A stretch of DNA of 64,000 bases from Clostridia bacterium (GTDB taxonomy: Bacteria > Bacillota > Clostridia > RGIG6154), in NCBI GenBank assembly GCA_045589295.1, contig JAZNOU010000005.1, forward strand, positions 1-64,000, in the 5' to 3' direction. A model generated the notes under the pieces. The model had not been told where the DNA came from. It saw nothing but the letters and a program-made list of their open reading frames with translations, and searched no databases. Both the position numbers and the translations under genes were made by a program. Shown here piece by piece: positions 5,093-34,200 of this stretch (position 1 is the first letter of the stretch; the number at the start of each line of letters is the position of its first letter).

Positions 5093-5335
5093 AAAAAATG
5101 CCCGTCCCAAAAGGGACGAGCATATTACCCGCGGTACCACCCAAATTCAGAAAATAATTTTCTGCACTTTATTGCCTGTTGTGTGTGGCAAAACACCCTG
5201 CTTATACTAAAAGCTTTCGCAGGAAGCTCCAATGCTGAAATTCACAATCTATCCTTTGCAACAGACACTCTCAGCCTATGATGTCTGCTCTCTTTTGCAG
5301 TAACAGATGCTACTTACACATCTTCACAGCCTTTA
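5093..5335 (-). promoter_or_regulatory. T-box riboswitch (Phe, specifier UUC) with terminator
   Basis: Minus strand carries AGTA, AGAGA and GCTGAG stem-I motifs; GAA-T-TTC-A specifier (5237-5239); T-box AATTTGGGTGGTACCGCG (5130-5147); terminator TGCTCGTCCC-TTTT-GGGACGGGCA-TTTTTT. Confidence 0.93.
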
Positions 5336-5338
5336 AAT

Positions 5339-32078: not shown

Positions 32079-33554
32079 CTAACGCTGTTTATAGTAACTT
32101 AAAAAGTCAGCAAGATTCTTAATCGCATCCTCCAAAACTTCTACACGGGGCAAATACACCACACGGAAATGGTCAGGATCCTTCCAGTTAAAACCTCGGC
32201 CGTTAATCAAGAGAATTTTCTTGTCACGAAGAAGGTCCAAAGCAAACTGTTCATCATTTGTAATATTAAATTTCTTTACATCAATTTTAGGGAAAATATA
32301 AAATGCCGCTTTGGGCTTTACCGCCGAAATTCCGGGTATGTCATTAAGTGCCTTGTAAATATAATCCCTCTGCTCATAAATTCTTCCACCGGGAACAATG
32401 TAGTTTTTCACACTTTGGTACCCGCCCAATGCCGTCTGTACAATCGACTGTGCCGGCACATTGGAACAAAGGCGCATATTTGAAAGCATATTAATCCCTT
32501 GAATATAGTCTTTTGCTATTGCTTTATTGCCACTCAAAATCATCCATCCCACTCGGAACCCTGCAATCATATGAGATTTAGAAAGTCCGCTATAGGTTAC
32601 ACAAAAGAGGTCCGGAGCTAAGGATGCAATTGATATATGTTCTTCGTCATCCATAACAAGACGGTCATAAATTTCATCCGAAAAGATAATTAACTGATTC
32701 TCTCTCGCTACTTTTACAAGCTCTTCCAAAACTTCTCTGGGATAAAGAGCACCCGTTGGATTGTTAGGATTGATAATAACAATAGCCTTGGTGTTTCGTG
32801 TAATTTTGCTGCGTATATCATTTATATCAGGATACCACTCTGACTGTTCGTCACATATGTAATGAACAGCCTTTCCACCAGCCAAAGTGGCACACGCGGT
32901 CCAAAGCGGGTAGTCGGGCGAAGGAATTAACACCTCATCCCCATCATTTAAGAGCGCAGACATACTAAGGTTGATAAGCTCACTTACACCATTTCCTATA
33001 TAAATATCATCAATCGTAACATTAGGAATATTCTTATGTTGTACATACTGCATCACCGCTTTACGAGCAGAAAAAAGTCCTTTAGAATCAGAATATCCCT
33101 CACATTCGGTCAACTGACGGCGCATATCGTAAATCACTTCATCCGGTGCCTGAAAGCCAAAAGGTGCAGGATTTCCAATGTTTAATTTAAGAATCTGCGT
33201 GCCTTCTCCTTCCATTCTTGCAGCTTCTTCCACCACAGGCCCGCGCACATCATAAAGCACATTTTCCAGTTTTGTAGATTTTTTTATATAATGCATGGTA
33301 GTATCCCCCATATTATTATCATTCTTATTTAAGTCTTCCTTACCCAACAACCATTCTTCGCTTACATCAAGAGCTGTTGCTAAAAAACAAAGGGTCTCCT
33401 TGCGTGGTATGATTTTGCCGGAAAGGTATTGAGAAATATGGCTTTTGCCCATTTTAATACCCTGCCCCTGTGCTATACGCACCAGTTCAATTTGTTTTAA
33501 CCCTTTTTTATGGATTGCCCACTGCAACCGTTTGCAAAAAATTGAACTTTCCAT
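32079..33554 (-). CDS. alaA: phage-repressor-like XRE HTH fused to AlaA-type glutamate-pyruvate aminotransferase (class I/II)
   Basis: Residues 1-72 are an HTH (KSHISQYLSGK...LDVSEEWLLG); then LYDVRGP, LKLNIGNP, YSDSKG, INPNNPTG, DEIYD, GLSK (PLP lysine), GFRVGW. Confidence 0.85.
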   Translation of the reverse strand: MESSIFCKRLQWAIHKKGLKQIELVRIAQGQGIKMGKSHISQYLSGKIIPRKETLCFLATALDVSEEWLLGKEDLNKNDNNMGDTTMHYIKKSTKLENVLYDVRGPVVEEAARMEGEGTQILKLNIGNPAPFGFQAPDEVIYDMRRQLTECEGYSDSKGLFSARKAVMQYVQHKNIPNVTIDDIYIGNGVSELINLSMSALLNDGDEVLIPSPDYPLWTACATLAGGKAVHYICDEQSEWYPDINDIRSKITRNTKAIVIINPNNPTGALYPREVLEELVKVARENQLIIFSDEIYDRLVMDDEEHISIASLAPDLFCVTYSGLSKSHMIAGFRVGWMILSGNKAIAKDYIQGINMLSNMRLCSNVPAQSIVQTALGGYQSVKNYIVPGGRIYEQRDYIYKALNDIPGISAVKPKAAFYIFPKIDVKKFNITNDEQFALDLLRDKKILLINGRGFNWKDPDHFRVVYLPRVEVLEDAIKNLADFLSYYKQR

Positions 33555-33588: not shown

Positions 33589-33618
33589 ATTATACTCCCG
33601 CTTTTTATATTTTGTCAA
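33589..33618 (-). promoter_or_regulatory. sigma-A promoter of HTH-alaA
   Basis: TTGACA-18-TATAAT. Confidence 0.65.
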
Positions 33619-33635
33619 GATTCTCTTAATTATTT

Positions 33636-33659
33636 TTGAACTTTTTTAAAAAAGTTCAA
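33636..33659. promoter_or_regulatory. 24-bp perfect palindrome, operator candidate
   Basis: TTGAACTTTTTT/AAAAAAGTTCAA upstream of the -35 box. Confidence 0.5.
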
Positions 33660-33828
33660 TTTTCACCTTGGATGTTTGATAACCACAAGAAATAGTTTTT
33701 CTTTTTTATAATAAGTTTAAAAATACACATACAACGAATTACTGGTCAATGAAATTTTCTATATTTGCTTCCTCATTTTGTGATAGTTTTGTCAATATTT
33801 CAAGGGTTTATAAAGCATACTTTTGTGT

Positions 33829-33857
33829 TGGGTGCAGGGGCCGGATTTGAACCGACG
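33829..33857 (-). pseudogene. 3' fragment (T-arm + acceptor strand + CCA) of a tRNA-fMet-like gene
   Basis: Minus strand reads CGTCGGTTCAAATCCGGCCCCTGCACCCA; no anticodon or D arm continues upstream. Confidence 0.7.
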
Positions 33858-34021
33858 CCGGAGTGTTAAGAAAACAGTTCGGTGGACTGTTTTTAGCATA
33901 GGATTGCAAAATGCGAGAGCATTTTGTTAATAAAAGAAAACACAATGTGTTTTTTCAATAATTATTCCGCCCGCCGGTCTCATAACCCGGAAGACAACAA
34001 TTTAAGTCGGACTCCGCTATA
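33856..34021 (+). other. degenerate tRNA-fMet-like element with a ~105-nt multi-hairpin insertion replacing the D-arm
   Basis: 5' CGCCGGAGTG; hairpins at 33871-33893, 33907-33926 and 33937-33953; anticodon arm CCGGT-CTCATAA-CCCGG; decayed T-arm; 3' CTCCGCTA. Confidence 0.6.
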
Positions 34022-34022
34022 C

Positions 34023-34060
34023 AAATCAAAAAGGACACCTAAAGGTGTCCTTTTTGATTT
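34023..34060. terminator. bidirectional terminator abutting the tRNA-Ser 3' end
   Basis: AAATCAAAAAGGACACCT-aa-AGGTGTCCTTTTTGATTT. Confidence 0.8.
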
Positions 34061-34151
34061 GGAGGAGAGGATGGGATTCGAACCCACGAAGCAGTTTAGC
34101 TGCTTACAGCATTTCCAATGCTGCGCCTTCGACCAACTCGGCCACCTCTCC
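34060..34151 (-). tRNA. tRNA-Ser(GGA)
   Basis: GGAGAGG acceptor, CAGCA-TTGGAAA-TGCTG anticodon arm, long variable arm, GTTCGAATC, encoded CCA. Confidence 0.96.
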
Positions 34152-34165
34152 GCTTAAACTACTAC

Positions 34166-34194
34166 AGTATACTATAGTTTTAAAAAAATCTCAA
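34166..34194 (-). promoter_or_regulatory. sigma-A promoter of tRNA-Ser
   Basis: TTGAGA-17-TATACT. Confidence 0.6.
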
Positions 34195-34200
34195 GTATTT

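Follow-up and report, generated by a model that had tools for sequence, protein, structure and literature searches.

The stretch at plus-strand positions 33829-34021 of the 64-kb window analyzed here (the whole piece of a Clostridia genome, designated G000, that was under study) raises the question of whether a run of hairpins flanked by tRNA-like sequence represents a tRNA-shaped RNA or a piece of mobile DNA. A preliminary description considered it a tRNA-fMet-shaped element in which three hairpins take the place of the D-arm, and offered as its nature either a non-autonomous repeat resembling the miniature inverted-repeat transposable elements (MITEs) or a tRNA-mimic noncoding RNA (ncRNA). 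The present analysis places the stretch in a family of repeats, referred to as the tRNA-tail element, and indicates that the window copy is probably a degenerate and orphaned member of this family, whose units carry no open reading frames (ORFs), share a folded core, lie behind tRNA and transfer-messenger RNA (tmRNA) genes and appear to be mobile DNA. The MITE-like repeat with tRNA-fMet-derived pieces is the half of the earlier proposal that is supported.

No tRNA is recognized within the element. ARAGORN calls only tRNA-Ser, tRNA-Lys and tRNA-Gln across the window, and the Rfam tRNA model (RF00005; gathering score 29 bits) matches neither strand of 33829-34021 when filters are permissive and E is allowed up to 10, the sole tRNA match in 33600-34200 at this E-value being tRNA-Ser. 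With the remainder of Rfam, the element is unmatched at the gathering threshold in a search of the window, a search of 33600-34200 at E ≤ 10 gives only chance matches far below threshold (e.g., BASRCI337 with 23.6 bits against a cut-off of 229), and a search of seven intact family loci at E ≤ 0.1 gives tRNAs and tmRNAs only, with the element again unmatched. No description of such an element was found in the literature, the supplementary candidate-RNA lists of PMC8040213 lying outside this search; these tables hold thousands of candidate RNAs from gut metagenomes and may include the present fold. The three hairpins, the GAGA loop, the loop containing CAT, the CTCCG motif and the terminator shared with tRNA-Ser are all found where they had been placed. 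The D-arm replacement is not borne out, and the architecture is instead an inverted tRNA-tail arm, a folded core and a direct tRNA-tail arm. The start previously assigned to the element (33856) is ~27 nt too late, having missed an inverted tRNA 3′ end at 33829-33859, and the CGCCGGAGTG at 33856-33865 that was taken for a 5′ acceptor strand spans the junction between this inverted T-arm copy and the conserved core of the family.

The family emerges from sequence searches with hairpin 1 (hp1) of the element. A BLAST search of the region against 41 genomes matches mostly the tRNA-Ser part, with the hp1 stretch matching several places in five other genomes, and a scan for the exact hp1 pattern in one genome per species returns 52 loci, mostly in Clostridia metagenome-assembled genomes (MAGs). 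The earlier statement that ACAGTCC-GG-TGGACTGT cores stand beside tRNA halves in other Clostridia is confirmed by these loci and by the matches to a covariance model in relatives described below. Among the 69 hp1 occurrences examined, three places having been fetched twice, a tRNA or tmRNA on the same strand ends 66-110 nt upstream in 40, and a further eight either belong to tandem arrays, as later units, or follow a tRNA at a distance of ~325 nt. The targets, confirmed as tRNAs and tmRNAs by Rfam, include the Leu, Lys, Arg, Pro, Ser, Met, Cys, Trp and Asn tRNAs as well as tmRNA. The core of the family comprises ~160 nt and the unit ~200 nt, without any ORF, and tandem arrays have a period of ~200 nt. 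On the tRNA strand, the canonical order is the tRNA terminator, the left arm as an inverted T-arm, the folded core, the right arm and another terminator. A nearby tRNA is available for comparison in 39 copies. In 35 of them, the right arm repeats the tRNA directly from a point within the T-loop, 16-24 nt short of the 3′ end (exactly 18 nt in many copies), and reaches or passes the CCA, often taking in the terminator and sequence past it. In 37 of them, the left arm corresponds to the reverse-complemented T-arm, covering tRNA positions ~-27 to -12 and sometimes extending to -3. Core subtypes and targets are reshuffled, in that three hp1 types are paired with one and the same right arm, and five different right arms with a single hp1 type. 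Two roles considered for hp1, a mimic of the D-arm and an invariant protein site, are ruled out by the unrelated hp1 loops of other family members.

The core adopts a conserved fold, and the strand on which it folds can be assigned. In a structure drawn by hand on alignment A2 (43 copies, with the window left out) and then tested, a closing helix P1 forms between the arms and encloses a small hairpin Pa with GNRA-type loops, the helices P2 and P2b around hp1, the helix P5 around P3, and a variable hairpin P4. Standard pairs make up 91.5% of 1992 cells in this alignment, and two-sided changes are present at 29 of 50 pairs. The covariation score of 0.315 compares with 0.134 in shuffles, none of 500 of which reach it, and with at most 0.082 for slid partners, a control that flatters the result somewhat given that the structure was derived from the same, mutually related, sequences. 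The hp1 stem itself covaries (e.g., UA:22 versus CG:19 at one pair) and has other stem sequences in relatives. The same variation and covariation of the hp1 stem is seen in alignment A3, which is model-based and contains 35 matches including the window row, and in which the block formed by P5 and P3 is the best conserved. The hairpins for which a covariation check had been suggested thereby receive support at the level of the family. On the tRNA-sense strand, 153 cells are G.U and 36 are A.C, which identifies the folding strand as the tRNA-sense strand, either as RNA or as single-stranded DNA.

The window copy belongs to this family. The covariance model R1, with 162 positions and built from 43 copies excluding the window, matches plus 33841-33985 over model positions 1-162 with 61.4 bits (E 1.2e-15), a score beyond chance that compares with 70-131 bits for intact copies, and a search of the whole genome finds the same place. 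The left arm at plus 33829-33859 (TGGGTGCAGGGGCCGGATTTGAACCGACGCC) is an exact inverted copy of a complete tRNA 3′ end, comprising the T-stem, a TTCAAAT T-loop, the acceptor 3′ strand, the discriminator and CCA; read on the minus strand it is GGCGTCGGTTCAAATCCGGCCCCTGCACCCA, with T-arm, acceptor 3′ strand, discriminator C and CCA of the initiator-tRNA type. Measured against the usual arm of ~15 nt, it represents the long extreme of the family pattern. The core elements that follow on this plus strand are the conserved junction on the 5′ side of hp1 at 33860-33870, where alignments A1 and A3 set GGAGTGTTAAG against a family consensus of GAGCGTTAAGA, hp1 itself at 33871-33893 (AAAACAGTTC-GGT-GGACTGTTTT, evident from direct reading and the predicted fold), and TAGCATAGGA at 33894-33903, which in the alignments is the degenerate equivalent of the conserved AGCGAAG junction 3′ of hp1. 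In the cmsearch alignment and in A3, hairpin 2 with its GAGA loop (33907-33926) corresponds to a distal remnant of family stem P3 and hairpin 3 (33937-33953) to the variable hairpin P4. The cmsearch alignment and direct reading place the decayed 3′ strand of the closing helix P1 at plus 33954-33969 (TTCAA-[TAATTA]-TTCCG), where its pairing partners are the CGGA and TTGAA of the left arm. Folding of both strands of the copy is more stable than that of shuffled sequences (z of -2.81 and -2.72, with 2 of 200 shuffles as good in each), and all three hairpins are present in the predicted folds of both strands.

Decay of the window copy is equally apparent. The P5/P3 block (GGTGYG.AGRCGGGTAC … GGTCGYCRAGCA) is deleted or replaced according to cmsearch and A3, leaving only hp1 with its flanks, the distal P3 hairpin and P4, and two other low-scoring copies in relatives are gutted in a like manner. 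On the right side, no plus-strand tRNA lies upstream to which a direct repeat could correspond, the sequence is decayed, the CCA is gone and an anticodon arm is present. The copy points away from tRNA-Ser across a palindromic terminator and has no cognate tRNA adjacent to it, and a plus-strand promoter scan shows no promoter-like site ahead of it. With its P5/P3 block gone, its upstream promoter-like site lacking, and its orientation facing away from tRNA-Ser with no cognate tRNA next to it, the window copy is therefore regarded as a relic, and a functional tRNA-mimic ncRNA at this locus is unlikely.

The distribution of the family is multi-copy and patchy. A BLAST search of the element against G000 yields only the self-match, and a single copy in this genome was accordingly considered; this is incorrect, as R1 finds two more copies with different hp1 sequences. 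One of them (C12:21260-21418, minus strand; 70.9 bits) lies behind tRNA-Leu(CAA) and has a perfect repeat of the tRNA tail and terminator. The other (C1:83028-83184, minus strand; 73.4 bits) carries tRNA-His arms, with the tRNA-His tail and the start of its terminator. The tRNA-His gene itself is located on contig C8. What follows it there looks, by eye, like an inverted version of the sequence preceding the C1 copy, the regions in question being G000:C1:82900-83330 and G000:C8:25700-25900. These inverse flanks suggest an inversion at the palindromic terminator, and the C1 copy is a precedent within the same genome for the orphaning of an element from its cognate tRNA. Beyond G000, R1 at E ≤ 1e-5 matches 19 of 41 relatives, with as many as 13 copies; 15 of these relatives belong to the same family, of which 17 other genomes were searched. 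In the order, 16 of 18 genomes have matches. In an even sample of the class, matches at E ≤ 1e-10 are present in 37 of 151 genomes and 26 of 106 genera, with 1-13 copies per carrier. The check for homologs suggested in the preliminary description thus finds nothing further in G000 by BLAST and further copies through relatives and the covariance model. Many copies are situated at contig ends.

Comparison of closely related genomes demonstrates that the element is gained and lost between congeners. The tRNA-Leu(CAA) gene is 100% identical in four congeners that differ in the state of the element at this locus, with a clean empty site in G002, a terminator followed by a lone left arm in G003, a full unit plus a truncated second unit in G001, and one unit in G000. 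Behind tRNA-Ser(GGA), G002 and G003 have a canonical unit in tRNA orientation, and G000 has the inverted relic with fMet-type arms.

The arms of the window copy point to an initiator-type tRNA other than that of its own genome. The final 25 nt of the left arm match the 3′ ends of tRNA-Met(CAT) in G009 (1 mismatch) and G008 (2 mismatches), in a search that gave matches in 3 of 21 genomes with the window itself counted, and the initiator-type tRNA (tRNA-fMet) of locus L075 shares the end CCCCTGCACCCA with the window left arm. The initiator tRNA of G000, which is located on another contig (C2:147216-147292), differs from the left arm in both T-stem and acceptor. The right side of the copy holds, in the sense orientation, an initiator-tRNA-like anticodon arm (plus 33974-33990; CCGGT-CTCATAA-CCCGG, with CAT at 33981-33983), which canonical copies lack and in which a 4-bp stem holds the CTCATAA loop. 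It is followed at plus 33991-34019 by a heavily decayed T-arm and acceptor 3′ strand (…GGACTCCGC) without CCA, including CTCCG at 34012-34016, in which approximately half of the positions agree with the reverse complement of the left arm (by eye, no tool). The reverse complement of the window anticodon arm resembles, again by eye, the left arm of a second element type at L064, and the window copy may be a composite of a T-loop-type unit and an anticodon-loop-type unit of the L064 kind. An inversion at the palindromic terminator was considered as an alternative origin.

Several observations concern these initiator tRNAs and their elements in their own right. The second element type lies directly behind tRNA-fMet at L064:3700-4130 (JAZTZM010000040.1); it combines a left arm reverse-complementary to the anticodon arm, a different core of ~130 nt and a right arm that directly repeats the tRNA from the anticodon loop to the CCA, and a canonical unit of the T-loop type comes next. 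The initiator-type tRNA of L075 (1171-1247, minus orientation) has two U.U mismatches in its T-stem (GTTGG / CCTTC), the unit behind it bears the arms of another tRNA, and the 3′ part of this tRNA may be chimeric. In G000, ARAGORN finds only two tRNAs with a CAT anticodon (one initiator and one other) and no tRNA-Ile(GAT), and the 22-contig assembly probably lacks the rRNA operon regions.

With regard to the surroundings of the window copy, a palindromic hairpin with an A-run and a T-run, which has the shape of a bidirectional terminator, occupies ~34024-34058 on both strands and is common to the element and tRNA-Ser; it is evident as a self-match on the opposite strand and is not among the calls of a simple terminator scan. 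The neighboring tRNA-Ser(GGA), outside the element and in the opposite direction, is found on the minus strand at 34060-34151 by ARAGORN and by Rfam (tRNA, 59.1 bits). On the other side, a minus-strand gene at 32079-33554 encodes a 491-aa fusion of a helix-turn-helix (HTH) domain and a class I/II aminotransferase, a MocR-like domain pair by Pfam, and is accompanied by a perfect sigma-70-like promoter at 33618-33589 on the same strand. A T-box leader is present at window positions 5109-5336 on the minus strand (Rfam, 107.5 bits).

Modules related to the family are also encountered in other settings. A third core type, which has only hp1 and its flanks in common with the family, is found at L150, L152, L154, L159 and L163 (IMG/VR contigs of 3300045988) and at L080. 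Its arms are tRNA-like (CGGGATTTGAA … AATCGCCCG…CTCCA), and its tandem units repeat every ~202 nt along contigs that are classed as viral. Outside Clostridia, and even in GC-rich surroundings, exact copies of hp1 version AAACAGTCCGGTGGACTGTTTT with flanks of the GAGCG / AGCGA type are present at L058, L074, L100 and L101 (Flavobacteriales), L059 and L088 (Eggerthellales) and L076 (Treponema), as well as in the GC-rich viral contigs L155-L157; one hp1 version is thus strikingly constant across phyla. At L101, three tandem units without tRNA-derived arms lie behind tRNA-Asn. Another recurrent module behind tRNA tails consists of a CGTCGGAA…TTCCGA terminator hairpin and then a …CTCCTTTTCCGCAAAAA…TTTTTTGCGG hairpin, and is seen with different tRNA tails in three genomes, namely in the gap between tRNA-Leu(CAA) and the unit on contig C12 of G000, at L141 (G001) and at L075.

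The features of the family can be accommodated by a mechanism in which it is non-autonomous mobile DNA that would enter tRNA genes by recombination inside the T-loop. Integration would displace the old tRNA tail, which would become the right arm, as is the case with tRNA-integrating islands. Sublocation classes of tRNA-gene integration were reportedly distinguished by Williams in 2002. It is proposed that the tRNA-sense single strand folds so that the two arms rebuild a T-arm-like duplex serving as the recombination site, with an enzyme provided in trans. Most tRNA genes of Firmicutes are oriented in the direction of replication, and on this basis the folding strand would be the lagging-strand template.

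The search for a mobilizing gene or parent element bears directly on this mechanism. The 81 loci examined contain 411 ORFs of 120 aa or more, none of whose protein clusters is present in more than four loci, and no integrase, reverse transcriptase or parent transposon adjoins the units. One intact core is unmatched by blastn in 50,697 phage records and 72,556 plasmid records. The exact hp1 pattern does occur in 16 IMG/VR loci, which represent other contexts or the third core type and in which ARAGORN finds no tRNA. The reverse transcriptase family RVT_1 (Pfam) has no match in G000, G005, G006, G007 and G027, which contain 3-13 element copies each. Within the class sample (counted by eye), 12 of 37 genomes with the element and 50 of 113 without it have such a match. 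RVT_1, the sole helper family covered by this co-occurrence test, thus shows no association with the element; tyrosine recombinases are ubiquitous and would not discriminate. When the family is set beside MITEs, the inverted arms are present and no short target duplication is seen, its place being taken by a tRNA-tail repeat of 18-80 nt; set beside tRNA-integrating islands as defined in Islander, the family has the repeat pair without an integrase, and the window copy is without an intact target as well. At L087 (2770-4440, minus orientation), 1.66 kb separate tRNA-Pro(TGG) from a canonical unit that ends in a tRNA-Pro tail repeat, and this stretch holds one ORF of 349 aa on the opposite strand.

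Several points weigh against the interpretation as mobile DNA entering at the T-loop. The recombination step is an analogy and not a demonstration, since no recombinase, excised circle or strain-level pair of empty and filled sites is seen. Classical tRNA-integrating elements keep one target, whereas subtypes and targets are here freely reshuffled, and a tRNA tail borne by the element explains neither this reshuffling nor an inverted arm that matches each new tRNA. At L010, L049 and the C1 copy, the terminator and left arm are included in the direct repeat, which could equally have originated from local tandem duplication. The strand-specific G.U pairs and GNRA loops suit RNA at least as well as single-stranded DNA. 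With respect to sampling, the seeds were picked by the exact hp1 pattern and the first alignment under-samples the family. The window copy itself may be composite, with a sense anticodon arm foreign to canonical copies.

The main rival explanation, which is rather less likely, holds that the unit is a structured ncRNA gene in the direction of the tRNA, a companion RNA of the tRNA trailer, and that the window copy would be its pseudogene. The closing helix of such an RNA would copy the neighboring T-stem and its 3′ tail the acceptor strand and CCA, and the product could be a mimic or decoy of the tRNA 3′ end; units that are duplicated or mobile are compatible with this explanation. Every unit is indeed on the tRNA strand with its own terminator at the end, and the strong covariation, the predominance of G.U over A.C cells on that strand (153 versus 36), the GNRA-type loops of Pa and the conserved junction nucleotides are all properties expected of an RNA, as is the broad retention in 26 of 106 sampled genera with no adjacent mobilizing gene. 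Only ~10-25 nt, however, separate the T-run of the upstream terminator from the left arm, with no conserved promoter visible there (A1, by eye), and transcription would therefore need to read through strong terminators. The presence and absence of units at an identical tRNA in congeners, the lone left arms and the truncated or orphaned copies are furthermore typical of selfish repeats.

It is very unlikely that the units are by-products without a life of their own, left behind by large tRNA-integrating islands or phages after repeated deletion of their interior. Islands are described in Islander and PMC9897764 as leaving behind just such a direct repeat of the tRNA tail, and the 1.66-kb stretch with its 349-aa ORF between tRNA-Pro and the unit at L087 also speaks for this origin. 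The 81 loci nevertheless contain no integrase or recurrent gene, the core is unmatched in the phage and plasmid records, the same ~200-nt unit is present up to 13 times per genome and in tandem, and a conserved fold with compensatory changes is unexpected for deletion scars. Still less probable is a SINE-like retroelement (after the short interspersed nuclear elements) that spreads via reverse-transcribed RNA with the left arm as primer-binding site. The complementarity of the window left arm to the last 31 nt of a tRNA including the CCA and the exact 18-nt start of many right arms would agree with such priming, yet most left arms stop before the complement of the CCA, no reverse transcriptase lies beside any copy, and RVT_1 is missing from five genomes with 3-13 copies and is distributed without regard to the element. 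Least probable of all is a plus-strand tRNA-fMet-shaped mimic with a three-hairpin insert for its D-arm, as the CTCATAA loop in a 4-bp stem, the possible pairing of CGGAG with CTCCG and the pairing of the ends in the minimum-energy fold stand against empty ARAGORN and Rfam tRNA searches, a supposed 5′ acceptor that is an inverted T-arm copy plus family core, a T-arm that is unrecognizable on the plus strand, and canonical members without any anticodon arm.

Comparison with known systems helps to position the family. Integron attC sites and the forked-hairpin attP of CTX-type phages are folded single-strand recombination sites acted upon by IntI or XerCD. By analogy, the imperfect inverted arms of the family would rebuild a target-like duplex, and one strand that folds well, the occurrence of arrays and an enzyme acting in trans would be further likenesses; in contrast to these sites, the target would be a tRNA T-loop and a large conserved multi-stem core lies between the arms. 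The tmRNA and the Y-RNA-like YrlA are tRNA-like RNAs whose ends form part of a tRNA. Like them, the family has a large inserted domain closed by T-stem-like pairing and ends in a 3′ tail containing NCCA, but it is without a 5′ acceptor strand or an intact T-loop, has no Rfam tmRNA match, and has arms that follow the neighboring tRNA. With MITEs and other small bacterial repeats, the family has in common that it is short, ORF-less, present in many copies, bounded by inverted terminal arms, patchy and often at contig ends. Its arms, however, are copies of the local tRNA and not a fixed transposon end, and no short target duplication or parent transposon is found. The closest resemblance in terms of the direct repeat is to the tRNA-integrating islands, whose hallmarks, according to Islander and PMC9897764, are a direct repeat of the tRNA tail from the T-loop, tandem accretion and the use of tmRNA targets. 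The displaced tRNA or tmRNA fragments (attR) of islands with tyrosine integrases likewise accompany an intact tRNA as a direct repeat of its 3′ part, from the T-loop to or past the CCA, and tandem accretion behind one tRNA and the targeting of tmRNA are also shared. The family differs in its unit of ~200 bp without integrase or any gene, in the additional inverted T-arm copy and covarying single-strand fold, and in the occurrence of one core subtype at many tRNAs.

As a variant of tRNA-flank repeats or integrative elements, the family appears not to have been described before, and it might be a new kind. More tentatively, and with some doubt, it may constitute a new class of miniature helper-dependent element (or the RNA of such an element) that would use the T-arm both inverted and direct, with a folded strand rebuilding the attachment site. 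Such a class would, by analogy, be the T-loop counterpart of attC and the CTX attP, would retarget among tRNAs and tmRNA, and would be present in about a quarter of the sampled Clostridia genomes, with related modules in viral contigs and other phyla.

The window locus itself is modest, being a dead copy of a repeat and not a new tRNA mimic. The family to which it leads has a fold of ~160 nt with strong covariation, has no entry in Rfam 15 and nearly always sits at the 3′ flank of a tRNA or tmRNA gene. Should it be mobile, it would be an unusually small site-specific element, and should it be an RNA, it would be a widespread tRNA-linked RNA in gut and rumen bacteria. In either case, the family breaks MAG assemblies at tRNA loci, leaves tRNA fragments able to mislead tRNA annotation, and marks points of rearrangement in the genomes that carry it, as with the tRNA-His element that is parted from its tRNA in G000.

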